Positions 5,087 to 49,868 of a stretch of DNA of 64,000 bases are shown here, piece after piece. The translations under genes and the position numbers were made by a program. This DNA is from an uncultured Verrucomicrobiae bacterium. GTDB lineage: Bacteria > Verrucomicrobiota > Verrucomicrobiia > Chthoniobacterales > JAATET01. Location of the stretch: contig CAVVKW010000004.1 of the NCBI GenBank assembly GCA_963749035.1, positions 594,531 through 658,530 on the forward strand, written 5' to 3'. A model generated the notes under the pieces. That model saw nothing but the letters and a program-made list of their open reading frames with translations. It was not told where the DNA came from and did no database searches. Every line of letters begins with the position of its first letter. Position 1 is the first letter of the stretch.

Positions 5087-5178
5087 CGCTGGGCTGAAGG
5101 TGTCGAATTGGAGAGACTCGGGCCAGCGAGAAATTACGGGTTGCGGAAGTTGCTGGTGGCTGGGGAGGTGTTGAATTA

Positions 5179-6357
5179 TTGCTCGCCGCCGTTCGTCCTG
5201 ACCTCACTGCCATGCCCGTTCCCGTTCCACCCAGCGATCCGCGAACCGCGGTGCCGGGGAAGCCGGCGAAATACCTGCCGCAACTCGACGGGCTGAGGGG
5301 GATCGCGATCCTCACGGTTTTGCTCCATCACTTTCACGTTCACCTACCTGCTTGGGTCGATTGGGGGCCGATCGGAGTGCGGCTGTTTTTTCTGCTGAGC
5401 GGCTATCTGATCACGATGTCACTGTGGAAATTGAACGCCCGAGCGGCAGCTGGGGCGGGTTGGTGGCGGGGGCTCTGGGATTTTCACACTCGGCGTTTTA
5501 CGAGATTGGCGCCGGTGCTGTATCTCATGTTGCTGGCGGCGTTTCTGCTGGGTCTGCCATTTTTCGGACGGGAGATTGCGTGGCACGCTGCGTTCCTGAC
5601 GAACTTCTACGCGATGATCCACGACCAGTGGCCGGGACCGGCTTCGCACCTCTGGTCCCTTTCTTTACAGGAGCAGTTTTACGTGCTGTGGCCGTTCGTG
5701 ATCGTCGCGATCCCGCGACGCTTTCTGCCGATTGTTCTGGTTGGGTTGTTTCTGAGTGCCTTCGGTTTTCGCTTTTGGGCGACGGCGACGAACGCGTCGG
5801 ATTTCGTGCGCTGGGTGATGCTGCCAGGCGTAATCGACAGCTTTGCGCTGGGAGCGCTGGTGTCGTGCTGGAAGGCCGCGCCGGGGCGGGCTCCAATCAT
5901 GTCCGGGAGGTTGGGTGCGGTGGTCGCGATCGCCGCCCTGGGTTGTTACGTCACGGCAAGATTCATGCGCTACGCGACGTTCAACTCGCCATTCCTCGCT
6001 CTCACCGAGACGTTCGAAAACGTGTTTCTCGCGTGGGTGATGCTGCGGACAATCGAGGGCTGGCCAGGATTGGCTGGACGGTTTTTCGCGAGCCCGGGGT
6101 TGGTTTACATCGGCAAGATCAGTTACGGGATCTACGTGTTCCACGTGTTGGTTCACGTGGTCGTAGGGCCTTGGCTCGATGCGATGGGGCTTCAGCCTTT
6201 CGTTTTTGCGCGGGCCGTCGTGCTGAGCGCCGTATCGATCGGAGTGGCCACCTTGTCGTGGCTTTACCTCGAGCAACCTCTCACCACTTGGATTCGTCGA
6301 CGGGAAGCTGCCAGGCGGGATCCGGCTGCGGTGACTTCGGAAGTGCCGGCGTCTTGA
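5179..6357 (+). CDS. acyltransferase family 3 (OafA-like) membrane protein
   Basis: YLPQLDGLRGIAILTVLLHH motif plus about 10 hydrophobic segments. True start may be the ATG at 5212. Confidence 0.8.
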   Translation: MLAAVRPDLTAMPVPVPPSDPRTAVPGKPAKYLPQLDGLRGIAILTVLLHHFHVHLPAWVDWGPIGVRLFFLLSGYLITMSLWKLNARAAAGAGWWRGLWDFHTRRFTRLAPVLYLMLLAAFLLGLPFFGREIAWHAAFLTNFYAMIHDQWPGPASHLWSLSLQEQFYVLWPFVIVAIPRRFLPIVLVGLFLSAFGFRFWATATNASDFVRWVMLPGVIDSFALGALVSCWKAAPGRAPIMSGRLGAVVAIAALGCYVTARFMRYATFNSPFLALTETFENVFLAWVMLRTIEGWPGLAGRFFASPGLVYIGKISYGIYVFHVLVHVVVGPWLDAMGLQPFVFARAVVLSAVSIGVATLSWLYLEQPLTTWIRRREAARRDPAAVTSEVPAS

Positions 6358-17587: not shown

Positions 17588-17853
17588 ATGAAAAAGGTCG
17601 ATTCAGTGAAGCGCAGATTATCGGGATATTACGGGAGGGGCAGGCCGGGAAGTCGGTCAAGGCGGTGTGCGGCGAGCACAACGTCAGTGAAGCGACCTTC
17701 TATAACTGGAAGAAGAAGTATGGAGGGATGGACGTGAGCGAAGCGCGTCGGCTGCGGGCACTGGAGGAAGAGAACGGGCGGCTCAAGCGGATCATCGCCG
17801 ATTTGAGCGTCCAGAACCACGTTCTCAAGGAAGTGAACGCAAAAAAATGGTAA
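17588..17853 (+). CDS. IS3-family transposase OrfA (HTH)
   Basis: MKKGRFSEAQIIGILREGQAGKSV...ATFYNWKKKYGGM...RLRALEEENGRLKRIIADL. Confidence 0.8.
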
Positions 17854-18749
17854 GCCCGTCGACCAGGCGACGGGCGGTAAAGATGAGTGTGGAAGAAGGC
17901 TGGAGCGAAGGAAAGACGGCGTCGGCGTGCCGGGCGTTGGGCTTGGCGCGATCGAGCTATTACCGAGTGGCGAAGGTCAGCGTGGAGAGCCGACGCGTGC
18001 GCAAGGAGATCATCGATCTGAGCAGCAAGCATCCGAGATATGGCTACCGCAGGATCACGGCGCTTTTGCGGCGGGATGGCTTCGAGATCAACCCGAAACG
18101 GGTGGCCCGTATCCGGCGTGAAGAAGGCTTCAAGGTCAGCAAGCGGCGACGACGCATGCGTCGTCTGGGAGTCTCGACGGCCGAGCGCAAGCGAGCCGAG
18201 CGCCCGCGGGAAGTGTGGAGCTGGGACTTCGTCGAAGACCAAACCGAAGCTGGGAGCCGGTTCCGGATCCTGACGCTGATCGACGAGCATACCCGGGAGT
18301 GTCTGGCCACGCATGCCGCTTGGTCGATCCGGGCCGTGGATGTCATCGGAGTCGTGGAGGCCGCCATCGCCCGCTACCGAGCCCCGGAGCATATCCGCAG
18401 CGACAATGGTCCGGATTTTATCGCTTACGCGATCCAAGACTGGCTGGCGGCCCAAGCGATCAAGACAATCTACATCAAACCAGGAAGTCCGTGGTAGAAC
18501 GGCCACATCGAGAGCTCCCACGACAAACTGCGAGACGAATACCTCAACCGAGGACTCTTCGACAGTCTGGCCGAAGCCCGTGTCATCCTGGAAAGCTGGC
18601 GCGTCGAATACAACACTCTGCGACCGCACAGCTCGCTCGGCTTCCAGACGCCGGTGGAGTTCGCGGTCGCGGCCGACAAGTCCCGTCTCCAGTCGCCCTC
18701 CGGGCTCCTTCCGACGGGACTTGCTTCCAAAACGAAAACTCTAATTTAG
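17847..18749 (+). pseudogene. IS3-family transposase OrfB (DDE) with in-frame TAG
   Basis: rve-type sequence (WSWDFV, LIDEHTRE, IRSDNGPDF). PGSPW-TAG-NGHIESSHDKLRDE, with the stop at 18495-18497 where family members have Q. The frame continues to 18749. Confidence 0.75.
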
Positions 18750-19943: not shown

Positions 19944-20069
19944 GCCGAACGTCAAGCTCAGCCACCCCGAACGGGCGTGCGAGCTATGGATTGTGATCTG
20001 CTGAATTTGACGCTTTCGATCAACTGAACCGGAGCGCGGGTAGTGGTTTGCTGCAGCACCTTGTTAGAC
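19944..20069 (-). repeat. attC site 3
   Basis: Boxes gccgaac/gttagac, 126 bp. Confidence 0.9.
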
Positions 20070-20381
20070 GAGCTATTGAAGTTGGGACCTGCCGGAATCG
20101 TGATCGAGATTTGGTAGAGCTCGCTCATCGTGTGCCACGAAAATCCACGAGCAATGGACGGTGATCATATGCGACGAACGGGCGCGAAAAGGTGGACTTC
20201 GTGGCACTCGATGAGCTTCTACGGCTATCAGTGGCGTGTTTGGCAGATTGATGTGGAGCCGAAGGCGCGGAGTAAATCTACCTCGACCGATCATATCATA
20301 TTCTCGAGGCGTAGATTCTCGATTCAACGCGACCCCACGATTCGTCGTGCACTGTGATAGGTCGCGGCCTGTATCTCTGTA
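20070..20381 (-). repeat. cassette family C, divergent copy C1
   Basis: Carries the same hairpin arms, GCTCATCGTGTGCCACGAA (20123-20141) and TTCGTGGCACTCGATGAGC (20198-20216), with two compensatory pair changes relative to C2-C5. A 106-codon frame is open here only. Confidence 0.6.
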
Positions 20382-20508
20382 GTCTAACGTCAAGCTCAGC
20401 CACCCTGAGCAGGTGACCGAGCCGCCAGTGGCAGATTCCTACAGGTTGCACGGCCGCTAACCCCAGCCAGCGAAGCGGCTAGGGGTTGGCTGCAGCGCCT
20501 TGTTCGGC
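20382..20508 (-). repeat. attC site 4
   Basis: Boxes gtctaac/gttcggc, 127 bp. Confidence 0.9.
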
Positions 20509-21534: not shown

Positions 21535-21885
21535 GTGAACGAAAAACCAAGAGAAACGAACAAGGGGCGACGATTTGACGAAGAGTTCAAACGAAGCGCC
21601 GTGGAAATGCTGGAAAGCGGAACGCGAAGCGCGACACAACTAGCGCTTGAGCTGGGGATCTCGACGTGGAGCCTGGGCAGGTGGAAGAAGCTTTACGGGA
21701 GAACCGCCGCCGGGACGGGTCCGGAGGGGGGAGGAGGACCCGTCCCGGCGGCGGGGCGGCCCCAGGACCTCGCCAGCGAGAACGCTCGCCTGAGAAGGGA
21801 ACTGGAGTTCACCACCCGCCAACGAGACATTTTAAAAAAAGCCTGCGCCATTTTGGGTCAGGAACCGTGGAACGCTTTGCGCTGA
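21535..21885 (+). CDS. IS3-family transposase OrfA
   Basis: RRFDEEFKRSAVEMLESG...ELGISTWSLGRWKK...LRRELEFTTRQRDILKKA. A6G slippery site at ~21835. Confidence 0.85.
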   Translation: MNEKPRETNKGRRFDEEFKRSAVEMLESGTRSATQLALELGISTWSLGRWKKLYGRTAAGTGPEGGGGPVPAAGRPQDLASENARLRRELEFTTRQRDILKKACAILGQEPWNALR

Positions 21886-22760
21886 TCGAGACGATGGAAA
21901 AGAACAGCTTTACCCTCAAGGAGCTTTGCCTGGCTCTGGAAGTCAGTCGCAGCGGCTACTACGCCCACGGGAAAAAGACCGAAGGTCTGCGCCAGCGCGA
22001 AGACGCCGATCTGAGTGATCGGATCGAAGCGGCTTTCCACGAGAACCGCCGAACCTACGGGACCCGTCGGCTGCGCGTCGTCCTTGATCGAGAAGGGCAA
22101 GTCTGCGGGCGACGACGTATCTCGCGCTTGATGTCCCAGAAAGGACTATGTGCCTTGCGCAAGGGTCGTTATCGGCCCCGCACGACCGACAGCTGCCACC
22201 CTCATCCCATCGCCCCGAATCGGCTCTTGTCCGATACGACCAACACGACCTCGTCTACCCCTGGGCAGACATGGGTGGCTGACATCACCTACCTACCCAC
22301 CGATGAAGGCTGGCATTATCTGGCTGCCGAAATGAACCTCGCTTCCCGTCGGATCGTTGGCTGGAAAACGGGATCAACCATGGAGAGCACCCTCGTCGAA
22401 AGTGCCTTCAGCCGCGCCGTCTTGCTCTCAGGAACTCGTCCACAACTCCACCATTCCGACCGCGGCAGCCAGTACGCCGCTGGGGCTTTCCGCTCCCTGC
22501 TCGACTCCCACGGCGTGACGCCGAGCATGAGCCGACGCGCCAACTGCTATGATAACGCCGCCATGGAGTCGTTCTGGTCCACTCTCAAAACCGAATGCTT
22601 CCACGCCGGCCCTCCGGCCACCCAAGCCCAAGCCGACGCGATGCTCTTCGACTACATCGAAACCTTCTACAATCCACGCCGACTCCATAGCTCCCTCGAC
22701 TACCAATCACCCCTCGAATACGAAAACTCACTCAATAACCTAACAACCAAAACAGACTAA
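21838..22760 (+). CDS. IS3-family transposase OrfB (DDE, via -1 frameshift)
   Basis: rve motifs WVADITYLPT, HHSDRGSQY, YDNAAMESFWSTLKTE. The start coordinate is approximate (frameshift product). Confidence 0.8.
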
Positions 22761-23172: not shown

Positions 23173-23298
23173 GCCGAACGTCAAGCTCAGCCACCTCGAA
23201 CAGATGGTCGAACTACTGATTGTGATCTGGAGAAGGTGACGCTTCCGAGCGTCTGAAAAGGAGAGCGGCTAGGGGTTGGCTGCAGCGCCTTGTTCGAC
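23173..23298 (-). repeat. attC site 5
   Basis: Boxes gccgaac/gttcgac, 126 bp. Confidence 0.9.
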
Positions 23299-23663
23299 TG
23301 GATCGGCTGGTGGTCCGGGAAAGGCATCGAGCTACTGGGAGCGTCGTATACTTTGGTTCAAATCGCGAAGCCACTTCAATGATTGGACGAATCCAGAGAG
23401 AAGGGTTCGACTTGGCAGGGATATATTTACGACCGCGGAAGTGATGAGGGCTGGATGTGGCTGGAATGAACAGGGACCAAGCTACGAATTTTTTTTCATC
23501 CGCCGGAGGCTGCTCACGGACATCGGTCGAAATCCGGTGGAGCTGATCTTGTCTTCGGGGTGGCCTCTCAAGTCGTCGCAGTCTGAACCAATGGTAGTTT
23601 GCCGGGTTTGTCGTCAGCTTCAGAATACCGAATTTACTCATCCGCCGGAGGCTGCATCATGAA
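23299..23663 (-). repeat. cassette family B, copy B1 (apparently non-coding)
   Basis: ~365-bp unit shared by 10 cassettes. Contains two CATCCGCCGGAGGCTGC motifs (23497, 23639). Confidence 0.8.
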
Positions 23664-23789
23664 GTCGAACGTCAAGCTCAGCCACCCCGATCGGGTGTTC
23701 GAACTACTGATCGTGATCATCTGCAATCTGGTCGTTCGCCAACCCCGAGAGCGAAGCGGCTAGGGGTTGACTGCAGCGCCTTGTTCGAC
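23664..23789 (-). repeat. attC site 6
   Basis: Boxes gtcgaac/gttcgac, 126 bp. Confidence 0.9.
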
Positions 23790-24883: not shown

Positions 24884-26017
24884 CCATTTCTATCTAAGAA
24901 TAGGACGTAAAAGTTTGTAGGAACTGTTTGTTTGAGAGAGCAGCCAGCCTTGACCAATCAAGGTGTTTACATTGGCGGGAGATTCCCAAAATTGTTTCAG
25001 CAGGCGGACGATGGCGGCTTCGATGTCGTCCAGAGTATCAAACAAGGCGTTGCCGATCTCGTCTTTGAGCTGGTCGAAGAGCTTTTCAACGGGATTGAGT
25101 TCTGGGCCATAGGCCGGAAATTGGAGGACGTGGATGCGCTCGGGAAGCGGATGAGAGCCCGCCTTTTGATGGAAGCCGGCACCATCCCAAATGATGACGT
25201 GATGGGCGCTCTCGTCGCTCTCGGCCAATTGACGCAGGAAGAAGTCGCTGACTTCCAGACTGAGCGTTGGGCTGAAAAAGAACTCGCTGGCGTTGTCTCC
25301 GTCAATCTCAAGCGCCGCGTAGAGGTGGCCCCACTGATATTTAGTTTGGTAGGGCGCGGTGGGTTTGACACCCCGCAACGTCCAAACCTTGCGGATCTCG
25401 CTGATCAGCCCATAGCGATGCTCATCAACCATCCAAACACGAACCTTTGCCTCACTCGGCAAGTCGAGGGCTTGAAGACGCTGGGCCAGTTCTTCTTTGA
25501 ATGCCAAGGCCGCGACCTCGTCTTTGCGAGCGTGAGTCTTGCGCGGCACTTTCAAGACTCCGCCGACTTTTCCCAACCAGTAATAAACCCCTTTGAGGCT
25601 GAGTTGCACGCCGTGATCTTCGCTCAGCCATGCCCGAACCTCCTTGGCCCGCTTCCAGCGACCTTGGCGCAGACCTTCCTTAAAGACTTCAATAAGCTCT
25701 GGACTCAGCGACGGCTCGTTGCCGGGCGGCTTCTTGCGTTCCAGCAAACCAGCTATTCCAGCCTCTCGATACCAACTCGCCCAGCGACCGACCGCTGAAC
25801 GGGCTCGAACGACCGCTTCAGCGACCTCTTCCATCGTGTAGTTGCCACTCATTCCCATTCGAACCGCTTGTAGCTTCTCAATATCTCGACGTTCGGTTGC
25901 CGCCTTTTCCGCTGCCTTGACCTCAACGAGATCTCCATCAATTCGAAACTTTTTTCCCATCGCCTAAACTACCAGATTCTTGGAATCTTGAATAGTCCTC
26001 AAGTTACATAGAAATGG
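24884..26017 (-). mobile_element. IS630-family insertion sequence
   Basis: IRs CCATTTCTAT(C/G)TAA at both ends. TA dinucleotide on each flank (24882-83, 26018-19). Confidence 0.85.
24890..25960 (-). CDS. IS630-family transposase
   Basis: 356 aa. HTH N-terminus, then WMVDEHRYGL, IIWDGAGFH, PAYGPELNPVEKLF (DDE). Confidence 0.88.
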   Translation of the reverse strand: MGKKFRIDGDLVEVKAAEKAATERRDIEKLQAVRMGMSGNYTMEEVAEAVVRARSAVGRWASWYREAGIAGLLERKKPPGNEPSLSPELIEVFKEGLRQGRWKRAKEVRAWLSEDHGVQLSLKGVYYWLGKVGGVLKVPRKTHARKDEVAALAFKEELAQRLQALDLPSEAKVRVWMVDEHRYGLISEIRKVWTLRGVKPTAPYQTKYQWGHLYAALEIDGDNASEFFFSPTLSLEVSDFFLRQLAESDESAHHVIIWDGAGFHQKAGSHPLPERIHVLQFPAYGPELNPVEKLFDQLKDEIGNALFDTLDDIEAAIVRLLKQFWESPANVNTLIGQGWLLSQTNSSYKLLRPILR

Positions 26018-26019
26018 TA

Positions 26020-26265
26020 TGACACGACAACACACGCGAACGGATTGATGGTCTTTTGCAGGTTTGCCCGTGGCATACAGGTTGCCGTCGTGGCGGTCGA
26101 TGAGCTCTCCAGCAACGGAAGTGTGAATATCTCGGTGGAGGTGAAGGTGAAGGGACGCTGATCTAAAGGAGGTGAATATCAATATGACTGCTGAACGCCT
26201 TGCAGACGATTAGGCACCCATTTTGCTTTCTGGCGTTCGCATACGAAGACTCCGCATTTCATTCT
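26020..26265 (-). repeat. cassette family A, copy A1 (truncated by IS630)
   Basis: Begins mid-element at TGACACGACAACACACGCG, directly after the IS630 TA. Confidence 0.8.
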
Positions 26266-27289: not shown

Positions 27290-27739
27290 CTCATTACTTT
27301 GTAGATAGCGTGGATTCTTCAATGCTTCAAGATAATCGGATTTACGATAGAATGGCCAATACCGAACAGGTCCATCTTCAAGTAAAACGGGCGGCGTCCT
27401 GCAAAATGGGTGGATTCGGAAAGTCGAGTTGATGAATCCGCGAATTCCTCTTTTGATCTGCCACTCGTATTCGAGATCTGTCTTCGGAAATAGGATTGCT
27501 CTTGCAAAGTCCTTTCGGATCCCGTCAGTTAATGCGTGCTCGCCGCTGAGCGTATGCCGATGGAAATCGTCATATTGAGGCCAAACTAAGCGATGTTCAA
27601 TTTCTGAGATGGCGGGATCGCCGCTGCTGCCGATGACACTCTGCTCACACGATTCTTCAAACTCGCGATTCGTAATTTAACCGGTCGCCAAATGGCGCAG
27701 GTTCTCAGCAAGGCGGTTTCGGTCGGTTCGTGATATCAT
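27260..27739 (-). pseudogene. cassette gene with in-frame TAA at codon 21
   Basis: Hand translation: MISRTDRNRLAENLRHLATG-TAA-ITNREFEES...RYLQSNEAQQGAAANP. A single frame is open across the whole cassette apart from that stop. Confidence 0.45.
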
Positions 27740-27748
27740 AATTTCTTG

Positions 27749-27874
27749 GCCCAACGTCAAGCTCAGCCACCCCGAACGGGCGTGCGAGCTACTGATTGTG
27801 ATCTGCTGAAGGTGACGCTTTCGAACGTCTGAAACGGAACGCGGCTAGGGGTTGGCTGCAGCGTCTTGATGGAC
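27749..27874 (-). repeat. attC site 11 (GAT-type box)
   Basis: Boxes gcccaac/gatggac, 126 bp. Confidence 0.85.
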
Positions 27875-28185
27875 AGAATTTTATGGAACCGCCGCCTGGC
27901 AATTGAGTTATCAAACCTTCGAAGGATGCGCTCATCGAGTGACACGACAACACACGCGAACGGATTGATGGTTTTTTGCAGGTTTGCCCGTGGCATACAG
28001 GTTGCCGTCGTGGCGGTCGATGAGCTCTCCAGCAACGGAAGTGTGAATATCTCGGTGTAGGTGGCGGTGAAGGGAAGCTGATCCAAAGGAGGTGAATATC
28101 AATATGACTGCTGAACGCCGTGCAGACGATTACGCACCCATTTTGCTTTCTGGCGTTCGCATACGAAGACTCCGCATTTCATTCT
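27875..28185 (-). repeat. cassette family A, copy A2
   Basis: Shared ~310-370-bp unit. Hairpin arms at 27930-27951 and 28001-28025. Confidence 0.85.
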
Positions 28186-28310
28186 GTCCATCGTCAAGCT
28201 CAGCCACCCTGAACGGGCGACCGAGAATCTGGAAAAGGTGAACTGCCGGAAAGAGTCACCTCAACCCGGGCGCGAAGCGGCTAAGGGTTGGCTGCAGCGC
28301 CTTGTTCGGC
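28186..28310 (-). repeat. attC site 12
   Basis: Boxes gtccatc/gttcggc, 125 bp. Same attC body as sites 30 and 45. Confidence 0.85.
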
Positions 28311-28595
28311 TGCATTCTTAGTATTTTTCAAGGTCCGTTCAATCCGTGGATTGATTACAAATCCCCAATAAAGAAATACTGACATAATTATTAACGGAAG
28401 CTCCAAAAGCCAAAAATAGTTCAAAGACAGCAGATCAAGAATCGATGGTATTCCAAATGCAAAAATTAAAAGTGGCAATCGAAGCCACATAATGAATGGC
28501 TCTCTTATCTCAAGATTTCTCATAATGGAGCGGATCTCTGACGGCGATTTGTCAGATAATTCTTTTATCTGGCTATGACGCAAAATGAATTTCAT
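28281..28595 (-). CDS. cassette ORF, 104-aa membrane protein (copy 1 of 3)
   Basis: MKFILRHSQIKEL... with 2 TM segments. Tail AEQGAAANP. Near-identical copies at 38099 and 46820. Confidence 0.7.
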   Translation of the reverse strand: MKFILRHSQIKELSDKSPSEIRSIMRNLEIREPFIMWLRLPLLIFAFGIPSILDLLSLNYFWLLELPLIIMSVFLYWGFVINPRIERTLKNTKNAAEQGAAANP

Positions 28596-28602
28596 TGTAA
28601 TA

Positions 28603-28728
28603 GCCGAACGTCAAGCTCAGCCACCCCGAACGGGCTTCCGAGCTACGGGTTGTGATCTACTGGAAGAAGTGCTTCCGAGCATCTGAGACGGAACGCGGCT
28701 AGGGGTTGGCTGCAGCGTCTTGATGGAC
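28603..28728 (-). repeat. attC site 13
   Basis: Boxes gccgaac/gatggac, 126 bp. Confidence 0.85.
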
Positions 28729-29045
28729 AGAATTTGATTGAACCGCCGCCTGGCAATCGAGCTATCAAACCTTCGAACGATGCGCTCATCGAGTGACACG
28801 ACAACACACGCGAACGGATTGATGGTCTTTTGCAGGTTTGCCCGTGGCATACAGGTTGCCGTCGTGGCGGTCGATGAGCTCTCCAACAACGGAAGTGTGA
28901 ATGTCTCGGTGGAGGTAAAGATGAAAATGAAGGTAAGCTGATCCAAAAGAGGTAAATATCAATATGACTGCTGAACGCTTTGCAGACGATTACGCACCCA
29001 TTTTGCTTTCTGGCGTTTGCATACGAAGACTCCGCACTTCCTTCT
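28729..29045 (-). repeat. cassette family A, copy A3
   Basis: Appears identical to copy A6 (45918-46234), including the preceding attC. Confidence 0.85.
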
Positions 29046-29171
29046 GTCCATCGTCAAGCTCAGCCACCCTGAACGGGCGTGCGAAATGCGGAACGCAGTT
29101 CCGCCAGGAAGCGGCTACGAGTTGGGTGTGTCAGCACGCGGCTAGGGGTTGGCTGCAGCGCCTTGTTAGGG
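29046..29171 (-). repeat. attC site 14
   Basis: Boxes gtccatc/gttaggg, 126 bp. Confidence 0.85.
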
Positions 29172-29483
29172 CCGTATCTGTATGTAGCTTCCGGCTGTTG
29201 AATCACGGATGGCAGATCTGATTTCTTCGATGCGGACTTCGAGAAGTTCAATGAGTGTAAAAGGGAGTTCCACGATTGAGACGGTTCGATTTGATAGATT
29301 CTGCTGATATCGAAGATTCTTGTCACCCGTGACAAGAACATCGAATTGACCATCAATGAGCTCCACCAATGAGCCATTTTTTACTCCAGTCCAACCTTTA
29401 AATCGAACGGTCACGACGTCGAATTCTTGCAACAAAAGTCGAAGGTCGATGGGCAAATTTTCGTCAAGAATGACTGTCTTCAC
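29166..29483 (-). CDS. DUF5615-like (PIN-like) putative toxin
   Basis: GTG start at 29483 (VKTVILDENLPIDLR...), aligned to the paralog at 61194..61511. The stop TAA lies in the R box CCCTAAC. Confidence 0.65.
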   Translation of the reverse strand: MKTVILDENLPIDLRLLLQEFDVVTVRFKGWTGVKNGSLVELIDGQFDVLVTGDKNLRYQQNLSNRTVSIVELPFTLIELLEVRIEEIRSAIRDSTAGSYIQIRP

Positions 29484-29676
29484 GAACCAACTTAAGGAAC
29501 TCGAGGGCGTCGTCCCGATCAACGGAAGGAAACTGTGCAAGAAATGAGTCAACCGAGTGACCTGCATCGATGTATTCAAGCAACGATTGAGCGATCACCC
29601 GCGTATCGCGAAATACGACTGTTCCACCCAGAATCTCTGGATCGGAATGAACTGGACTGTGATCAAGAGTTACCAT
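29464..29676 (-). CDS. DUF433-like putative antitoxin
   Basis: 70 aa. SDPEILGGTVVFRDTRV...LLEYIDAGHSVDSFLAQFPSV pattern. Overlaps the downstream gene by 20 nt. Confidence 0.65.
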   Translation of the reverse strand: MVTLDHSPVHSDPEILGGTVVFRDTRVIAQSLLEYIDAGHSVDSFLAQFPSVDRDDALEFLKLVREDSHS

Positions 29677-29720
29677 TGCGTGATATTACCGATTGCGAGT
29701 CTTTCTGCAACTGTATTGGG

Positions 29721-29846
29721 CCCTAACGTCAAGCTCAGCCACCCCGAACGGATGATCGAGCAATGGGTTGTGATCTGCTGGAGGGAAGACGTGGATGAAA
29801 GCTGACTGCGTAGCGGCTAGGGGTTGGCTACAGCGCCTTGTTCGGT
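29721..29846 (-). repeat. attC site 15
   Basis: Boxes ccctaac/gttcggt, 126 bp. Confidence 0.9.
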
Positions 29847-29852
29847 CTGTAT

Positions 29853-30242
29853 TTATTCTTTTCCGTAGAATTCGGAGATCTCTATTTGATTGAGCGACCT
29901 GATGAAGAACCAATCTCGCAGAAACGCATAAAGCAATATGAGCGCAGTCCCTCCGATGGCCGTGTAAGAGAATCGATTCTGCCAGAGCAAAGACAAAAAT
30001 TCGTAAGCTCCATTGTCAAAACTCCAAGTTAGGAGAAGATAAAGTCCTAGGAATTGGATGGACCACATTGGGGTTTGAGCTACTTGAGGTTTTTGGCGAT
30101 GAGGGGCCATCATCCTGACGAACGCGGCCCCGACGAAAAACACTACAGCAATCCAAAGGTTGAGAATAAATGCAATGGCTGTGCCGATGAACAGCAGGAA
30201 ATGCGATGAGAGAACTAATTGTTTCACGCTGATGTAGACCAT
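29853..30242 (-). CDS. cassette ORF, 129-aa integral membrane protein (copy 1 of 2)
   Basis: 4 TM segments with its own TAA stop. Near-identical copy at 36437..36826. Confidence 0.7.
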   Translation of the reverse strand: MVYISVKQLVLSSHFLLFIGTAIAFILNLWIAVVFFVGAAFVRMMAPHRQKPQVAQTPMWSIQFLGLYLLLTWSFDNGAYEFLSLLWQNRFSYTAIGGTALILLYAFLRDWFFIRSLNQIEISEFYGKE

Positions 30243-30287
30243 GAGTGAGATTTTTGGCTAGTTAGGGTTTCGCTAAAGTATTTCTGG

Positions 30288-30413
30288 ACCGAACGTCAAG
30301 CTCAGCCACCCCGAACGAGCTTCCGAGGTATGGATTGATGTTTGTTGGAGGAAGAGCTTTCGAACGTCGGAAACGGAGGGCGGCTAGGGGTTGGCTGCAG
30401 CGCCTTGTTAGAC
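30288..30413 (-). repeat. attC site 16
   Basis: Boxes accgaac/gttagac, 126 bp. Confidence 0.9.
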
Positions 30414-30731
30414 TGGTCAGGATAAAATAGTGAGCTGCGGAGAAGATAATCGAAAACTGCGGACTAGCTCATCGTGTGCCACAACAATGTACGCAGTCGA
30501 GAAACTGATCTCTTTCAGGATCTCATGGTCGTATACAAGTGACAGTTGTGGCACTCGATGAGCCTCCCACAGCAGGGGGAACGTTGAATGCGTGATAGGC
30601 TCCCGTGCCGAAGGATTTCACGGATGCTACGATCTGGACAACTATTCTTTATGCTCGTTCTTTAATCGCCCGATTAATTGTTCGCAATCGAATGCCTGTT
30701 GGAAACGGAAGTCGCAATGCAGTATCAGGAA
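30414..30731 (-). repeat. cassette family C, copy C2
   Basis: Hairpin arms at 30467-30485 and 30545-30563. No frame is conserved with C3-C5. Confidence 0.8.
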
Positions 30732-30857
30732 GTCGAACGTCAAGCTCAGCCACCCCGTACGGGCGTTCGAGCTACGGGTTGTGAACTGCTGGAAGAATCG
30801 CTTTCGAGCATCTGAGACGGAACGCGGCTAGGGGTTGGCTGCAGCGTCTTAATGGAC
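30732..30857 (-). repeat. attC site 17
   Basis: Boxes gtcgaac/aatggac, 126 bp. Confidence 0.85.
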
Positions 30858-31228
30858 AGAATTTCATCGAGTCGCCGCCTGGCAATCGAGCTATCAAACC
30901 TTCGAATGATGCGCTTATCGAGTGACACGACAACAAACGCAAACGGATTGATGGTCTTTCGGAGGTTTGCCCGTGGCATACAGGTTGCCGTCGTGGCGGT
31001 CGATGAGCTCTCCAGCAACGGAAGTGTGAATGTCTCGGTGGAGGTGAATGTGAAGGTGAAGGTGAAGGTGAAGGTGAAGGTGAAGGTGAAGGTGAAGGTG
31101 AAGGTGAAGGTGAAGAAACGCTGATCCAAAGGAAGTGAATATCAATATGACTGCTGAACGCCTTGCAGACGGTTACGCACCCATTTTCCTTTCTGGCGTT
31201 CGCATACGAAGAATCCGCATTTCATTCT
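30858..31228 (-). repeat. cassette family A, copy A4 (expanded hexamer tract)
   Basis: Same unit as A2, with 12 GGTGAA-type units. Confidence 0.85.
31043..31114. repeat. (GGTGAA)n microsatellite, 12 units (10 perfect)
   Basis: Counted directly: perfect units from 31055 to 31114. Confidence 0.95.
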
Positions 31229-31354
31229 GTCCATCGTCAAGCTCAGCCACCCCGATCGGGTGTGCGAGCTACTGTTTGTGATCTACTGAAAGAATCGCTT
31301 TCGAGCATCTGAGACGGAACGCGGCTAGGGGTTGGCTGCAGCGCCTTGTTCGAC
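31229..31354 (-). repeat. attC site 18
   Basis: Boxes gtccatc/gttcgac, 126 bp. Confidence 0.85.
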
Positions 31355-31721
31355 TGGATTGGGTTGTCGTCCGGGAAAGTCATCGAGCTACTGGGGGCGT
31401 CGTATACTTTAGTTCAAATCGCGAAGCCACTTCAATGAATGGACGAATCCGGAGAGAAGGGTTCGACTCGGAAGGCATATATTTCACGAGCGTGGAACGG
31501 ATGAGGGCTGGATGTGACCGGAACGAGTAGGGATCAAGCTACAAATCTTTTTTTCATCCGCCGGAGGCTGCTCACGGACATCGGTCGAAATCCGGTAGAG
31601 CCGACCTTGCCTCCGGCGTGGCCTCTCAAGTCGTCGCAGTCTGAACCAATGGTAGTTTGCCGGGTTTGCCGTCAGCTACAGAAGCCCGGATTTAATCATT
31701 CGCCGGAGGCTGCATCATGAA
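31355..31721 (-). repeat. cassette family B, copy B2
   Basis: Family B unit. Confidence 0.8.
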
Positions 31722-31847
31722 GTCGAACATCAAGCTCAGCCACCCCGAACGGGCGTGCGAGCTACGGGTTGTGATCTACTGGAGGAAAACTGAGGAAGAA
31801 AGCTGATAGTGGAGCGGCTAGGGGTTGGCTGCAGTGCCTTGTTAGCT
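31722..31847 (-). repeat. attC site 19
   Basis: Boxes gtcgaac/gttagct, 126 bp. Confidence 0.9.
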
Positions 31848-32943: not shown

Positions 32944-33069
32944 GCCGAACGTCAAGCTCAGCCACCCCGAACGGGCTTGCGAGCTACTGGTTGTAATCTG
33001 CTGAAAGAATCGCTTTCGAGCATCTGAGACGGAATGCGGCTAGGGGTTGGCTGCAGCGCCTTGTTCGAC
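32944..33069 (-). repeat. attC site 21
   Basis: Boxes gccgaac/gttcgac, 126 bp. Confidence 0.9.
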
Positions 33070-33435
33070 TGTATCGGCTGGTGGTCCGGGAAAGTCATCG
33101 ATCTACTGGGAGCGTCGTATACTTTGGTTCAAATCGCGAAGCCACTTCATTGTTTCGAGGAATCCAAAGAGAAGTGCTTGACTCGGAAGGCATATATTTC
33201 ACGAACGCGGAAGGGATGAGGGCTGGATGTGGCTGGAATGAACAGGGACCAAGCTACGAATTTTTTTTCATCCGCCGGAGGCTGCTCACGGACGTCGGTC
33301 GAAATCCGGTGGAGCCGATCTTGTCTTCGGGGTGGCCTCTCAAGTCGTCGCAGTCTGAACCAATGGTAGTTTGCCGGGTTTGCCGTCAGCTAGAGAACAC
33401 CGAATTTACTCATCCGCCGGAGGCTGCATCATGAA
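33070..33435 (-). repeat. cassette family B, copy B3
   Basis: Family B unit. Confidence 0.8.
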
Positions 33436-33564
33436 GTCGAACGTCAAGCTCAGTCACCCCGAACACGGGACCGAACTTGCATGGTGGACGTTGGATGGAA
33501 TGGCGGAAGTCAGAACAACTGCGCCGTGTCGCGGCTAGGGGTTGGCTGCAGCGCCTTGTTCGGT
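33436..33564 (-). repeat. attC site 22
   Basis: Boxes gtcgaac/gttcggt, 129-bp subtype. Confidence 0.9.
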
Positions 33565-35812: not shown

Positions 35813-35938
35813 CCCTAACGTCAAGCTCAGCCACCCCGAACGGGCGTGCGAGCTACTGGTTGTGATCTGCTGAACGTGACGCTTTCGAACATCTGAAACA
35901 GAACGCGGCTAGGGGTTGGCTGCAGCGCCTTGTTCGAC
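35813..35938 (-). repeat. attC site 26
   Basis: Boxes ccctaac/gttcgac, 126 bp. Confidence 0.9.
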
Positions 35939-36304
35939 TGTATCGGATGGCGGTCCGGAAAGGTGTTCGAGCTACACTGGGAATTGTATTCGTCTTACCA
36001 AATCGCGAAGACACTTTCATGTTTCAGCGAACCCTAAGAAAAGGGTTCGACTCGGAAGGCATATATCTCGCGAACGCGGAAGGGATGAGGGCTGGATGTG
36101 GCCGGAACGACCGGGGATCAAGCTACAATTCTTTTTTCATCCGCCGGAGGCTGCTCACGGACATCGGTCGAAATCCGGTTGAGCCGATCTTGTCTTCGGG
36201 GTGGCCTCTCAAGTCGTCGTAGTCTGAACCAATGGTAGCTTGCCGGGTTTGCCGTCAGCTACAGAATACCGAATTCCCTGATCCGCCGGAGGCTGCATCA
36301 TGAA
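35939..36304 (-). repeat. cassette family B, copy B4
   Basis: Family B unit, close to B9. Confidence 0.8.
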
Positions 36305-36430
36305 GTCGAACGTCAAGCTCAGCCACCCCGAACAAGCTTCCGAGGTATGGATTGATGTTTGTTGGAGGAAGAGCTTTCGAACGTCGAAAACGGAGTGCGG
36401 CTAGGGGTTGGCTGCAGCGCCTTGTTCGGT
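36305..36430 (-). repeat. attC site 27
   Basis: Boxes gtcgaac/gttcggt, 126 bp. Confidence 0.9.
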
Positions 36431-38420: not shown

Positions 38421-38546
38421 GCCGAACGTCAAGCTCAGCCACCCCGAACGGGCGAACGAGCTAATGATTGTGATCTACGGGAGGAAAACTGTGGAAGTAA
38501 CCTGGTGGTGGAGCGGCTAGGGGTTGGCTGCAGCACCTTGTTCGAC
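38421..38546 (-). repeat. attC site 31
   Basis: Boxes gccgaac/gttcgac, 126 bp. Confidence 0.9.
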
Positions 38547-38913
38547 TGTACGGGATAGTGGTCCGAAAATGTCATCGAACTAAAGTAGGCGATATTTACT
38601 TTGGTCCAAATTGCGAAGCCACTTTTCAAGAGTTAGCAAATCTAACGAGGAGGGTTCGACTCGGGAGGCATATATTTCACGAACGCGGAAGGGATGAGGG
38701 CTGGATGTGGCCGGAACGACCGGGGATCAAGCTACAAATCATTTTTCATCCGCCGGAGGCTGCTGACGAACATCAGTCGAAATCCGGTGGAGCCGATCTT
38801 GTCTTCGGCGTGGCCTCTCAAGTCGTCGCAGTTTGAACCAATGGTAGTTTGTCGGGTCTACCGTCACCTACAGAATCCCGGATTTACTCATCCGCCGGAG
38901 GCTGCATCATGAA
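38547..38913 (-). repeat. cassette family B, copy B5
   Basis: Family B unit with a divergent 5' half. Confidence 0.8.
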
Positions 38914-39039
38914 GTCGAACGTCAAGCTCAGCCACCCTGAACGGGCGGGCGAACTGAGGGTTGTGATCTGCTGGAGGCGGATCGTGGAGTAAAGCTGGGC
39001 ATGGAGCGGCTAAGGGTTGGCTGCAGCGCCTTGTTAGGC
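38914..39039 (-). repeat. attC site 32
   Basis: Boxes gtcgaac/gttaggc, 126 bp. Confidence 0.9.
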
Positions 39040-40419: not shown

Positions 40420-40736
40420 AGAATTTTATTGAACCGCAGCCTGGCAATTGAGCTATCAAACCTTCGAACGATGCGCTCATCGAGTGACACGACAACACAC
40501 GCGAACGGATTGATGGTCTTTTGCAGGTTTGCCCGTGGCATACAGGTTGCCGTCGTGGCGGTCGATGAGCTCTCTAGCAACGGAAGTGTGAATATCTCGG
40601 TGTAGGTAAAGGTGAAGGTGGAGGGACGTTGATCCAAAGGAAGTGAATATCAATATGGCTGCTGAACGCCTTGCAGACAATTACGCACCCATTTTGCTTT
40701 CTGGCGTTCGCATACGAAGAATCCGCATTTCATTCT
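40420..40736 (-). repeat. cassette family A, copy A5
   Basis: Family A unit. Confidence 0.85.
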
Positions 40737-41637: not shown

Positions 41638-41957
41638 TGGTCAGGATAAAATGGTGAGCTGCGGAGAAGATGATCGAATAACTGCGGACTAGCTCATCGT
41701 GTGCCACAACAATGTACGCAGTCAAGAAACTGATCTCTTTCAGGATAACCCGGTCGTATACAAGTGACAGTTGTGGCACTCGATGAGCCTCCTATAGCAG
41801 GCGGAACGTTGAATGCGTGATAGGCTCCCGTGCCGAAGGCTTCCACGGGTGCTACATGATGGAAAGTTATTCTCTTATGCTCGTTCTTTGATCGCCCGAT
41901 CAATTCTTCGCAATCGAATGTCTGTTGGAAACGGAAGTTGCAACGCAGTATCAGGAA
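41638..41957 (-). repeat. cassette family C, copy C3
   Basis: Family C unit. Confidence 0.8.
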
Positions 41958-45917: not shown

Positions 45918-46234
45918 AGAATTTGATTGAACCGCCGCCTGGCAATCGAGCTATCAAACCTTCGAACGATGCGCTCATCGAGTGACACGACAACACACGC
46001 GAACGGATTGATGGTCTTTTGCAGGTTTGCCCGTGGCATACAGGTTGCCGTCGTGGCGGTCGATGAGCTCTCCAACAACGGAAGTGTGAATGTCTCGGTG
46101 GAGGTAAAGATGAAAATGAAGGTAAGCTGATCCAAAAGAGGTAAATATCAATATGACTGCTGAACGCTTTGCAGACGATTACGCACCCATTTTGCTTTCT
46201 GGCGTTTGCATACGAAGACTCCGCACTTCCTTCT
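45918..46234 (-). repeat. cassette family A, copy A6
   Basis: Duplicate of A3. Confidence 0.85.
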
Positions 46235-46360
46235 GTCCATCGTCAAGCTCAGCCACCCCGAACGGGCGTGCGAGCTATGGATTGTGATCTGATGAAGGTG
46301 ACGCTTCCGGACGTCTGAGACGGAGCGCGGCTAGGGGTTGGCTGCAGCGCCTTGTTCGAC
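46235..46360 (-). repeat. attC site 44
   Basis: Boxes gtccatc/gttcgac, 126 bp. Confidence 0.85.
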
Positions 46361-46724
46361 TGTATGGGATGGTCGCCCGGGAAAGTCATCGAGCTATTGG
46401 GGGCGTCGTATACCTTGGTTCTAATCGCGAAGGCACTTTAATGATTGGACGAATTCAAAGAGAAGGGTTCGACTTGGCAGGCATATATTTACGACCGCGG
46501 AAGTGATGAAGGCTGCATGTGGCCGGAACGAGCGGGGATCAAGCTACGAATTTTTTTCATCCGCCGGAGGCTGCTGACGGACATCGGTCGAAATCCGGTG
46601 GAGCCGATCTTGTCTTCGGCGCGGCCTCTCAAGTCGTCGCAGTCTGAACCAATGGTGGTTTGCCGGGTTTGCCGTCACCTACAGGAGCCCGGATTTAATC
46701 ATCCGCCGGAGGCTGCATCATGAA
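46361..46724 (-). repeat. cassette family B, copy B6
   Basis: Family B unit, close to B8. Confidence 0.8.
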
Positions 46725-46849
46725 GTCGAACGTCAAGCTCAGCCACCCTGCACGGGCGACCGAGAATCTGGAAAAGGTGAACTGCCGGAAAGAGTCACCT
46801 CAACCCGGGCGCGAAGCGGCTAAGGGTTGGCTGCAGCGCCTTGTTCGGC
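46725..46849 (-). repeat. attC site 45
   Basis: Boxes gtcgaac/gttcggc, 125 bp. Confidence 0.9.
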
Positions 46850-47790: not shown

Positions 47791-48101
47791 AGAATTTCAT
47801 CGAGTCGCCGCCTGGCAATCGAGGTATCAAACCTTCGAACGATGCGCTCATCGAGTGACACGACAACACACGCGAACGGATTGATGGTCTTTTGCAGGGT
47901 TGCCCGTGGCATACAGGTTGCCGTCGTGGCGGTCGATGAGCTCTCCAGCAACGGAAGTGTGAATATCTCGGTGTAGGTAAACGTGAAGGGAAGCTGATCC
48001 AAAGGAGGTGAATATCAATATGACTGCTGAACGCCTTGCAGACGATTACGCACCCATTTTGCTTTCTGGCGTTCGCATACGAAGACTCCGCATTTCATTC
48101 T
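47791..48101 (-). repeat. cassette family A, copy A7
   Basis: Family A unit. Confidence 0.85.
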
Positions 48102-48226
48102 GTCCATCGTCAAGCTCAGTCACCCCGATCAGGTGCAGAGGAAAGTGGAGTGATCAACCGCAATCTGGTCGTCCGCCAACCCCGAGAGCGAAGCGGCTAG
48201 GGGTTGACTGCAGCGCCTTGTTCGAC
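48102..48226 (-). repeat. attC site 48
   Basis: Boxes gtccatc/gttcgac, 125 bp. Confidence 0.85.
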
Positions 48227-48928
48227 TGTATTTGTATGTCCTAAGAAATGAGTGTCGAGAGGACACTCGACAACAGAATCTCCTTCAGTGCTGATGTAAA
48301 AGGCCTGCGCAGTGGGACGTGAACTCACCACATAGGCAAGGGCATCATCGATAAAATGAAGAGCGACGCCGTCATCAATAGCATAACCGGGAGATAGCCT
48401 ATGCTGTTGGATCAAAGTGTGAAATGAAAGGCGGCGTTCAGGCTCTCCATCGTAATGAGGTGTGCAACTGCCGGAAAGGAAACCGAGGCAATCCATCACA
48501 GATAAATCACCGTCTGAATCTGTGTGTCCCTGATCAAACCAACAAATGGCGCCGGCACTTAAGCCGCACAGAACAACGCCGTTCTTCCAAGCTTCGTGAA
48601 GCATGGAATCTAGGTTGAAAGAGCGCCAAGTGGTAAGCATGTTTCGTGTATTCCCTCCACCGACGTAAATCACGTCGCACTCTTTCACAAATTCCGTCAA
48701 GTCCGGGGGACTATCGGAGAGCGAAAGATGGCATGGCCGGCAAGGCAATGTTGAAAATGCGGTGTAAAAGCGATCAATGTATCCTTCAGAATCTCCGCTG
48801 GCTGTCGGTAGAAAACAAACTTTCGGCTCAGGCTTACCGGTGGAATCTAAGGCGTAGCGATCGAGAAGGAGATTTGCGGGTTCCATCGAAAACCCGCCAC
48901 CGCCCATCGCTATAATGTGCCTTTTCAT
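48197..48928 (-). CDS. peptidase S51 (dipeptidase E-like) family protein
   Basis: IIAMGGGGF...VCFLPTASGDS...IYVGGGNTRNML...LCGLSAGAICWF. Tail VEQGAAVNP. Confidence 0.78.
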   Translation of the reverse strand: MKRHIIAMGGGGFSMEPANLLLDRYALDSTGKPEPKVCFLPTASGDSEGYIDRFYTAFSTLPCRPCHLSLSDSPPDLTEFVKECDVIYVGGGNTRNMLTTWRSFNLDSMLHEAWKNGVVLCGLSAGAICWFDQGHTDSDGDLSVMDCLGFLSGSCTPHYDGEPERRLSFHTLIQQHRLSPGYAIDDGVALHFIDDALAYVVSSRPTAQAFYISTEGDSVVECPLDTHFLGHTNTVEQGAAVNP

Positions 48929-49062: not shown

Positions 49063-49378
49063 AGAATTTGATTGAACCGCCGCCTGGCAATTGAGCTATC
49101 AGACCTTCGAACGATGCGCTCATCGAGTGACACGACAACACACGCGAACGGATTGATGGTCTTTTGCAGGTTTGCCCATGGCATACAGGTTGCCGTCGTG
49201 GCGGTCGATGAGTTCTCCAGCAACGGAAGTGTGAATATCTCGGTGTAGGTAAAGGTGAAGGTGAAGGGACGCTGATCTAAAGGAAGGGAATATCAATATG
49301 ACTGCTGAACGCCTTGCAGACGATTGGGCACCCATTTTGCTTTCTGCGTTCGCATACGAAGAATCCGCATTTCATTCT
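49063..49378 (-). repeat. cassette family A, copy A8
   Basis: Family A unit, with a 1-nt deletion in the 3' part relative to the other copies. Confidence 0.85.
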
Positions 49379-49504
49379 GTCCATCGTCAAGCTCAGCCAC
49401 CCCGAACGGGCGTGCGAGCTATGGATTGTGATCTACTGGAGGTGGTGCTTTCGAACATCTGAAACAGAAAGCGGCTAGGGGTTGGCTGCAGCGCCTTGTT
49501 CGAC
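49379..49504 (-). repeat. attC site 50
   Basis: Boxes gtccatc/gttcgac, 126 bp. Confidence 0.85.
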
Positions 49505-49868
49505 TGTATGGGATGGTCGCCCGTGAAAGTCATCGAGCTACTGGGGGCGTCGTATACTTTGGTTCAAATTGCGAAGCCACTTCAATGATTGGACGAATCC
49601 AGAGAGAAGGGTTCGACTCGGAAGGCATATATTTCACGAGCGTGGAAGGGATGAGGGCTGGATGTGGCCGGAACGAGTAGGGATCAAGTTACGAATTTTT
49701 TCATCCGCCGGAGGCTGCTCACGGACATCGGTCGAAATCCGGCGGAGCCGATCTTGTCTTCGGCGCGGCCTCTCAAGTCGTCGCAGTCTGAACCAATGGT
49801 AGTTTGCCGGGTTTGCCGTCAGCTACAGAATACAGAATTTACTCATCCGCCGGAGGCTGCATCATGAA
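49505..49868 (-). repeat. cassette family B, copy B7
   Basis: Family B unit. Confidence 0.8.

Follow-up and report, generated by a model that had tools for sequence, protein, structure and literature searches.

A base-paired stem as the constrained core of a non-coding cassette superfamily in a verrucomicrobial chromosomal integron

The integron array and its hairpin-bearing cassettes

The window analysed here, a stretch of 64,000 nucleotides from an uncultured Verrucomicrobiae bacterium, begins with a chromosomal flank of 60% G+C (1–18.7 kb) and then enters a very large sedentary integron array with a G+C content of about 50%. The integron occupies positions 18775–64000 on the minus strand, with 72 attC sites of 112–117 nt each lying between 18775 and 63121. 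No integron integrase is found within the 64-kb window, as the array continues past its right end. Three lines of evidence indicate that the cassettes are read on the minus strand: in the window the attC lies on the left side of the repeated cassette families; the cassette genes supported by Pfam, encoding Peptidase_S51 (48197–48928) and Laminin_G_3 (58034–58867), are on the minus strand; and the related locus L007 has, to the right of an array of the same orientation, an attI and an integron integrase that scores 416.7 bits with TIGR02249 (cut-off 265). The attC sites of the array carry their extra bases on the 3′ arm of the plus strand which, following the definition in PMC2727003, makes the plus strand the bottom (recombining) strand of attC. 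The window genome is related to five 'uncultured Verrucomicrobiae' MAGs of sample MFD03250 (MgtE identity 85–86%), the next relatives being Opitutaceae (MgtE identity 55%); the carrier is a soil Verrucomicrobium from an Opitutaceae-like clade of the phylum Verrucomicrobiota.

At 27930–28025, on the plus strand, lies a 96-nt hairpin formed by GCTCATCGAGTGACACGAC (27930–27948), a loop of 58 nt (27949–28006) with a weakly conserved centre, TGRTC-WTWT-GCAG, and GTCGTGGCGGTCGATGAGC (28007–28025). The whole hairpin scores 104.9 bits with the R2 model. Its 5′ arm divides into an R-like box of 7 nt (GCTCATC), a spacer of 5 nt (GAGTG) and an L-like box of 7 nt (ACACGAC), and its 3′ arm into GTCGTGG, CGGTC and GATGAGC. 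The hairpin belongs to a family A cassette (27755–28191, minus strand) made up of an attC (27755–27868) and a non-coding body of 323 nt, which extends from G↓ATGGACAGAAT to ATTCTGTCCAT↓C, the arrows marking the junctions. Counting both strands of the window, GCTCATCG occurs 31 times, compared with 4.1 occurrences expected from shuffled sequences, and none of 100 shuffles reached 31.

With a covariance model of the hairpin, 16 copies are recovered in the window, 15 of them full and one truncated. They all lie on the plus strand and in inter-attC regions, and the window contains nothing comparable outside these 16 cassette-borne copies. Ten of the full copies belong to family A (96 nt): besides the focal one, these are 28784–28879, 30913–31008 (whose 5′ arm has a C>T change that gives G.T on the plus strand), 40475–40570, 45973–46068, 47846–47941, 49118–49213 (with a C>T change at the final base of the 3′ arm, also giving G.T on the plus strand), 52001–52096, 54647–54742 and 60818–60913. 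Four are of family C (97 nt; 30467–30563, 41692–41788, 50049–50145 and 59070–59166), and one represents the divergent family C1 (94 nt; 20123–20216, in cassette 19950–20387). The truncated copy (26020–26105, family A) is missing 10 nt at the start of its 5′ arm and adjoins the end of an IS630-like element (24884–26019), and the cassette of hairpin 30913–31008 contains the longest (GGTGAA)13 repeat. A preliminary description of this DNA had reported the hairpin in families A and C, with the sequence given above at 27930–28025, and had placed it inside cassettes; both observations hold, the second for all 16 copies in the window.

When the window is taken together with the MAG loci, hairpin-bearing cassettes number 59 out of 361 (16 out of 72 in the window alone), that is, 16–22% of the cassettes. 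The 40-odd further hairpin copies are found in four of the related MFD03250 Verrucomicrobiae MAGs, always in arrays with the same type of attC, and the hairpin was not found in the fifth relative (CAVRCI). Two pattern scans over 185,579 species-representative genomes returned no copy outside the four MFD03250 MAGs, nor did one scan each of metagenomes and of viral contigs or a BLAST search against plasmids. Pattern matches in Planctomycetota, Actinomycetota and Olsenella, as well as 106-nt matches in metagenomes, were judged unrelated; the matches L003, L009 and L021 were set aside for having no attC array nearby, and L031 and L033–L036 on their different length alone. No match to Rfam 15 is obtained at the gathering score over the whole window, nor does the hairpin have a match at E≤10 within 27740–30900. 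The hairpin motif matches nothing in Rfam and is found in one clade only.

The hairpin-bearing cassettes fall into families A (found only in the window), A′, B, C, C1, D and E. Their bodies of about 325 nt (the cassette having about 440 bp with its attC) can be aligned between all families, and since families A–E align along the whole body they constitute one superfamily. The position of the hairpin is constant, 59–65 nt from the attC of its own cassette and about 160 nt from the other boundary, and always in one orientation. On its attC side there are short conserved blocks at a fixed distance (GAGCTGC, N8, GATGATCRAA), and motifs of the TGATC type recur both there and in the loop. A MITE or other independent mobile element is ruled out, as all copies occupy the same site of a single cassette superfamily, and so is an invertible segment, the orientation of the loop being identical in all copies. 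The hairpin is the constrained core of a non-coding, highly paralogous and lineage-restricted cassette superfamily.

Base pairing, constraint and absence of coding

In an alignment of 36 distinct sequences, the 19 pairs of the stem (columns 7–25 with 85–103) are 93% paired, which compares with 22–48% when the 3′ partner is slid. With the homologues from the related MAGs included, four of these pairs are seen to have changed on both sides, in some 5–6 independent events: pair 15/95 occurs as A-U, U-A and C-G, and pairs 21/89, 23/87 and 25/85 have changed from A-U to G-C, from G-C to A-U and from C-G to A-U, respectively. The compensatory changes between C and C1 that had been described previously (CCACAAC/GTTGTGG against CCACGAA/TTCGTGG) are correct, and the proposal built on them, that compensation preserves the structure, is reinforced by the larger set of homologues. 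Clearly, the 19-bp stem is maintained by base pairing. RNAalifold returns this main helix alone, for the hairpin as for the whole cassette and on either strand, and no conserved pairing was found inside the loop; an outer helix of 4–5 bp spotted by eye (CTGCC/GGCAG) has no support from RNAalifold on the whole cassette. The internal loop and the bulge in the 3′ arm, which had been presented as part of the fold, are features of families A, A′ and D, whereas the stem is almost fully paired in B and has a single T.T mismatch in C and C1.

Besides being kept paired, the stem is almost invariant in sequence. Within families, 5 substitutions fall in 152 stem positions, 64 in 231 loop positions and 356 in 934 positions of the remaining cassette, so that the stem evolves more slowly than the loop by a factor of about 8 (Fisher test on substitution density, 7.6e-11) and more slowly than the rest by a factor of about 11. 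Save for three single-copy transitions, all families have identical outer 8 bp, with the families being about half diverged elsewhere. The loop has a fixed length of 56–59 nt and a sequence that varies between families, its central motif being weak. An invariant stem combined with a free loop is the pattern expected when the stem is read by a protein, and the opposite of that of a typical trans-acting small RNA.

These figures bear on the view that the hairpin is a relic or by-product without present function, either the decayed attC of an ancient fused cassette or a quasi-palindrome whose symmetry is maintained by template switching and gene conversion between paralogues. Fused cassettes are indeed known (PMC8876359), and paralogous non-coding cassettes have been proposed to undergo gene conversion (PMC1382264). 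Also, the loops are mosaic across families, the 5′ side of D being B-like and its 3′ side A′-like, with blocks common to A and C variants, which shows exchange among paralogues. However, no part of the cassette evolves more slowly than the stem, which stays the same between families that have diverged to such an extent elsewhere, and conversion alone would have homogenised the loop as well, which makes a relic an unlikely explanation.

The invariance of the arm sequences could also be taken to mean that the element works as double-stranded DNA, the arms serving a dimeric regulator as inverted binding sites, or contributing to a promoter, within a regulatory or promoter cassette. Promoter-active cassettes without an ORF have been described (PMC6557892), and the TGATC-type motifs repeated in the loop and on the attC side would be in line with such a role. 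We nevertheless consider it very unlikely, as the compensated arm variants ACACGAC/GTCGTG, CCACAAC/GTTGTGG and CCACGAA/TTCGTGG coexist in one genome, which fits base pairing and not one protein reading two half-sites. Furthermore, the spacing of about 77 bp between the centres of the arms is unusual for an operator, and no promoter-like hexamers were found in a scan of 27700–31300, a region that spans three family A cassettes, one of them only in part, and one cassette of family C.

The hairpin cassettes encode no protein. The variable columns within families have no 3-periodicity (p = 0.12–0.62), and in no frame of the hairpin, on either strand, is there an excess of synonymous changes (synonymous 8/29, 8/30, 5/15 and 6/18). 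One-nucleotide indel events are frequent within families (22 in B, 18 in C and 9 in A′), many of them just outside the hairpin, and reading frames and stop codons are not kept between families, the plus strand of family B having stops in all three frames. A Shine-Dalgarno sequence and ATG on the plus strand of family A (28104–28241) were considered and discarded, as the other families do not keep them. The earlier statement that the arms fall in different frames in A and C is borne out by the hairpin lengths of 96 and 97 nt, and its corollary, a nucleic-acid structure and no shared peptide, by the periodicity, indel, synonymous and protein-search analyses.

A further coding possibility is a small protein gene on the minus strand, spanning the hairpin and with the motifs EAHRxP ... 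VVxxDE. Indeed, one minus-strand frame is open through the hairpin in every family, and the hairpin lengths of B, C, C1 and D differ by multiples of 3. This frame relation is broken, though, by the 96 nt of A, A′ and E (the lengths across families being 93, 94, 96 and 97 nt), and the '..VVxxDE' peptide motif appears in the translations of both strands, which is the result of the arms being palindromic and is obtained from this property alone. Considering also the indels near the hairpin and the missing coding signals, that no start codon or Shine-Dalgarno sequence exists at a conserved place for this ORF, and that it has no word-sharing relative among 5.8 billion proteins, we regard such a gene as extremely improbable.

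In respect to the strand on which the stem would fold, all 5 within-family stem changes are transitions producing a G.T pair on the plus strand, where the minus strand would have A.C, and five families (A, A′, B, D and E) have a fixed T.G wobble at 17/93. An incomplete copy at L030 7893, with an A.C pair on the plus strand, is a counter-example. The plus-strand fold is the more stable one for 8 of 8 representatives with RNA parameters and for 7 of 8 with DNA parameters. Although the events are few, this evidence points to the plus strand, the bottom strand of attC, as the folding strand; the asymmetry could also arise from C>T deamination of an exposed strand, which without selection gives the same picture.

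Comparison of the hairpin with attC sites

In geometry, the resemblance of the hairpin to the attC sites of its own array is genuine. As in an attC (59-base element), an imperfect hairpin is formed, probably on the bottom strand, by arms of 7 + 5 + 7 nt, with the same succession of R box, spacer and L box as in the attC sites of the array, the stem is conserved and the centre variable, and the length of 94–97 nt is within the attC range. The outer box GCTCATC/GATGAGC fits RYYYATC/GATRRRY, a variant of the RYYY-AxC box of attC, carries the ATC/GAT triplet in essentially every copy, and is followed by G, as is usual after the attC triplet (PMC2727003). The canonical triplet of the 7-bp R boxes at the foot of an attC stem, AAC (bottom strand)/GTT, is, however, replaced in the hairpin by ATC/GAT. 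The preliminary description had related this triplet to the boundaries of family A, and in fact GAT junctions are confined to hairpin cassettes: G↓AT junctions occur in 48 cassettes, all 48 of which bear the hairpin, and in 2 truncated ones, as opposed to 0 of 297 ordinary cassettes, whose junctions are GTT/AAC. Families C and C1 have GTT/AAC boundaries and yet an ATC/GAT box in the hairpin, for which reason the link between the triplets of hairpin and boundary may reflect a single ancestral event. Cassettes with G↓AT junctions lie between unrelated neighbours which, taken with the reported ability of integrases to cleave 5′-GWT-3′ (bioRxiv 10.1101/2022.09.11.507474), indicates that the GAT/ATC junctions are evidently recombination-competent. 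Considering this cleavage and the use of the triplet at 48 junctions, the variant triplet alone does not exclude function.

A distinct scenario results from the features that define folded attC substrates used by integrases, namely extrahelical bases on the R″-L″ arm (the 3′ arm on the bottom strand) and an unpaired central spacer (PMC2727003). In the true attC sites of the array the spacer, GTCAA/GCCTT, is fully unpaired, whereas in the hairpin the 5-nt spacer has at least one mismatch in every family (G.G, T.G and A.G in A; T.T in C) and is mostly paired in B, C and D. Position 19/91, for instance, is an A.G mismatch in A, A′, B and D and a C-G pair in C, C1 and E. Extrahelical bases are not conserved either, a GCC bulge being present only in A, A′ and D, beyond the 19-bp stem, and none in B, C, C1 and E. 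The attC-like layout put forward in the preliminary description therefore stands as regards the 7-5-7 arms and the RYYYATC-G box, and is not supported by the extrahelical bases nor clearly by the spacer. Its suggestion to score the hairpins with an attC model also had a negative outcome: a covariance model (R1) trained on the window's 72 attC sites recognises all 72 of them at 93–140 bits and none of the 16 hairpins at E≤10 with the filters switched off, a silence that says little about generic attC likeness, given that R1 is strongly specific to the attC sequence of this array.

The main idea advanced previously was that the hairpin is a true second attC-like site, at which the integron integrase or another recombinase would cross over at GAT/ATC. 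The box and arm geometry, the conserved stem with a variable centre, the folding on the attC bottom strand and the presence of GAT at real junctions of the same superfamily, within the GWT specificity (bioRxiv 10.1101/2022.09.11.507474), all agree with this idea. Nevertheless, across the window and the related loci not one of 361 cassettes begins or ends at the hairpin, and these cassettes contain no G↓ATGAGC junctions, no GCTCATC↓GTCAAGC or CTTG↓ATGAGC hybrids and no half-cassettes. Both truncated copies are otherwise explained, one by the end of the IS element and the other, a fused cassette at L017 ~4033 that is missing one hairpin arm, by a microhomology deletion inside the 5′ arm and not by a G↓AT crossover. 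Adding to this the poor conservation of extrahelical bases and unpaired spacer and the silence of R1, a second crossover site appears quite unlikely, and in the reading favoured below the hairpin itself is no crossover site.

Possible roles of the hairpin

The reading that we tentatively favour, as one possibility among several, is that the hairpin is a folded strand read by a protein, probably bottom-strand single-stranded DNA, and acts in cis for a selfish cassette without an ORF. Folding of the neighbouring attC would expose the bottom strand in single-stranded form, and the hairpin would fold there. The obvious candidate for the protein that would read its stem is the integron integrase, owing to the resemblance of the 7-5-7 R/spacer/L geometry and of the RYYYATC-G box to the attC of the same cassettes. 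The hairpin may then serve in cis as an accessory or pseudo site aiding the recombination or persistence of its own cassette, and the cassettes would be selfish passengers of the array, which would fit their share of 16–22%.

A more specific and rather unlikely version holds that the hairpin is a pseudo-attC recognised by the integrase, which would turn gene-less cassettes into self-amplifying parasites of the integron. In this version the cassette would gain an advantage in synapsis, or in excision and re-insertion, from three features combined: the private G↓AT triplet, an extended R stem of 12 bp, and a second hairpin bound by IntI, which lies 60 nt from the true attC and on its strand. If true, it would explain how one non-coding superfamily fills about one fifth of several very large arrays.

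Nearly as likely as the protein-read DNA strand is a structured RNA borne by the cassette, small or cis-acting, made antisense from the plus strand or contained in the sense transcript of the array, the stem of which would be read by an RNA-binding protein or RNase; single-stranded DNA and RNA cannot be separated on sequence. The covariation, the wobbles of G.U type, the better plus-strand folds, the absence of an ORF from the cassettes and the blocks at a fixed distance on the attC side (GAGCTGC, N8, GATGATCRAA) are all in keeping with an RNA, and there is precedent in sRNA-Xcc1 and in ORF-less cassettes with promoters on either strand (PMC8876359, PMC6557892). On the other hand, neither a sigma-70-like promoter nor an intrinsic terminator is found at equivalent positions within 27700–31300, and a U-tract after the stem is absent on both strands. 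As the plus strand is antisense to the cassettes, an unrecognised promoter would be required in every one of them. The combination of a variable single-stranded loop and an invariant stem is, moreover, the reverse of what trans-acting small RNAs typically present, and Rfam has no match even at E≤10.

Comparison with known systems places the superfamily close to the highly paralogous, lineage-restricted non-coding cassettes of Vibrio, which have been proposed to be selfish or to be regulatory or otherwise useful to the integron (Boucher et al. 2006, PMC1382264). Like these, the present cassettes are bounded by normal attC sites within an array, have no ORF and no coding signal, and are paralogous, with close homologues confined to closely related genomes; they are conserved over their full length with a substitution pattern that is not codon-like, and they reach many copies per array, 16 of 72 here and up to 45 in Vibrio vulnificus (PMC1382264). 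Unlike the Vibrio cassettes, with which they share no sequence similarity, they occur in another phylum (Verrucomicrobiota), have as constrained core a defined 19-bp stem with compensatory changes, and for the most part use the non-canonical G↓AT triplet. The promoter-bearing ORF-less cassettes of oral Treponema integrons (Tansirichaiya et al. 2019, PMC6557892) are comparable in that such cassettes may act on their neighbours or on the integrase; the present ones differ in having no sigma-70-like promoter within 27700–31300 and a base-paired stem as their defining feature. An integron-cassette-encoded small RNA of Xanthomonas, sRNA-Xcc1 (Chen et al. 2011, as cited in PMC8876359), offers the likeness of a non-coding functional element on an integron cassette. 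The hairpin departs from it in that its conserved part is a long stem and not a single-stranded region, in being known here from sequence alone, and in its lack of an Rfam match. The sRNA-Xcc1 family itself is expected to be in Rfam. REP elements, like other protein-read ssDNA hairpins, are short, repeated and sequence-conserved hairpins whose stems are read by a single-strand-acting enzyme, RAYT in the case of REP; in contrast, the hairpin is confined to one cassette superfamily, has no HUH transposase and does not move independently. With respect to attC itself, the hairpin differs in its ATC/GAT triplet (AAC/GTT in attC), in having a largely paired spacer and no conserved extrahelical bases, in never lying at a cassette boundary and in escaping the array's attC covariance model.

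Gene-less cassettes are abundant in large chromosomal integrons, and whether they are selfish, regulatory or junk has been debated since at least 2006. The superfamily described here provides a precise handle on this question, as it combines a 19-bp stem under strong purifying selection with natural compensatory variants, a fixed position on the attC side and a private triplet. Should it prove to be RNA, a phylum that has received little study would contribute a new structured motif. If the integrase reads the stem, no accessory folded site would have been described within a cassette before this one, and selfishness at the level of the cassette would have a mechanism; with integrase binding, the hairpin would count as a new variety of integron recombination biology.

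Boundaries of the hairpin cassettes and layout of the attC sites

In families A, A′, B, D and E, the boundaries of the hairpin cassettes depart from the canonical crossover triplet and read G|AT ... AT|C instead of G|TT ... AA|C; within the array, each of the two flanking attC sites is thus mismatched at the middle position of the triplet. Such a boundary is found in family A at positions 27868-27874 and 28186-28192 of the window, and likewise in all family A cassettes and in the scan-hit loci L001-L032. The hairpin cassettes of these same families also have the 12-bp extended inverted repeat (ATGGACAGAAT/ATTCTGTCCAT), and the canonical triplet is present in all 297 other cassettes. A further particularity concerns the attC sites of the window, as in all 72 of them the bottom strand has C, versus the usual G, as the extrahelical base of the L box, arranged as GGCTG-C-AGC opposite GCTCAGCC (for example at 27755-27868); the second extra base is a T, as is usual.

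Variation and coding potential to the right of the hairpin

Within families, comparing the copies of the window and those of the MAG loci, the fastest-evolving part of the cassette is the segment to the right of the hairpin, with 0.44 substitution events per site and many 1-nt indels. The length of this segment nevertheless stays within 158-168 nt from one family to another, suggesting that length is constrained and sequence is not. Family A carries a variable-copy hexamer, (GGTGAA)n, with about 1 to 13 units (31037-31115, 54771-54828 and 60942-60961), at a distance of about 30 nt on the right-hand side of the hairpin; this repeat is absent from the other families of hairpin cassettes. Also in family A, a plus-strand ORF of 45 codons (28104-28241, and the equivalent place in the other copies) is opened by a strong Shine-Dalgarno sequence (AAAGGAGGTG) and an ATG, and runs past the cassette into the next attC. 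Because its start is not kept in families A′, B, C, D or E, this reading frame is probably not a gene.

Other recurrent cassettes and possible rearrangements of the array

The window contains a second paralogous cassette family, which lacks the hairpin and has about 10 members, each about 490 bp long (23174-23669, 31230-31727, 32945-33441, 35814-36310, 38422-38919, 46236-46730, 49380-49874, 50321-50813, 50814-51305 and 52258-52751). No Pfam match was obtained for this family, whose longest ORFs are found on the plus strand and thus run against the direction of the cassettes. It may represent a further non-coding family, or alternatively a small-gene cassette in inverted orientation. Another recurrent cassette, containing GGTCTTCGTGGTCGCTGCTCTGAGCGRGCCACGATGA and having in common a box like CACGATGA(G/A)C, is observed at 62200-62330 and in the scan-hit loci L001 (~3090-3200), L006, L007 (3930-4040), L015, L016 and L030. 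In L007, where a related MAG has its integron platform (4283-4330 and 5100-6164, with an intI matching TIGR02249), this cassette occupies the first position beside attI. The crossover of the L007 attI is the canonical G|TT (...CCAATATACTG|TTAGGCC on the top strand). This attI also contains AACCTTCC twice as a direct repeat, and its comparison with the hairpin arms evidenced no similarity.

An IS630-like element with inverted ends TACCATTTCTAT is located at 24884-26019 and encodes a DDE_3 transposase on the minus strand (24890-25960). Its flanks are unrelated, the left one being another cassette and the right one a family A hairpin devoid of its first 10 nt, which suggests an IS-mediated deletion. 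An IS3-family element (rve, HTH_21) is represented by three copies or fragments (17847-18497, 21666-22760 and 53126-54220), with one fragment of this family situated at the left end of the array, which is the distal one. This end may be rearranged, since in the related MAGs no attC array adjoins mgtE. A fused cassette is observed at 3991-4131 of L017, a locus from a related MAG, where a deletion has removed the 5′ arm of an A′ hairpin together with the 61-nt spacer, the attC and part of the adjacent cassette. Its two sides meet in a CG microhomology, where the hairpin arm ends on the inner side, and the fusion could have arisen by hairpin-stimulated slippage.

GC skew and possible replication strand

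The GC skew is positive nearly throughout positions 1-64000, and the cumulative skew rises. If this skew reflects replication, the plus strand, which comprises the attC bottom strands and the hairpin, would be the lagging-strand template. Most sedentary integrons have been reported with the opposite arrangement. Placement of the attC bottom strands and of the hairpin on the lagging-strand template, if true, would favour folding and cassette turnover.
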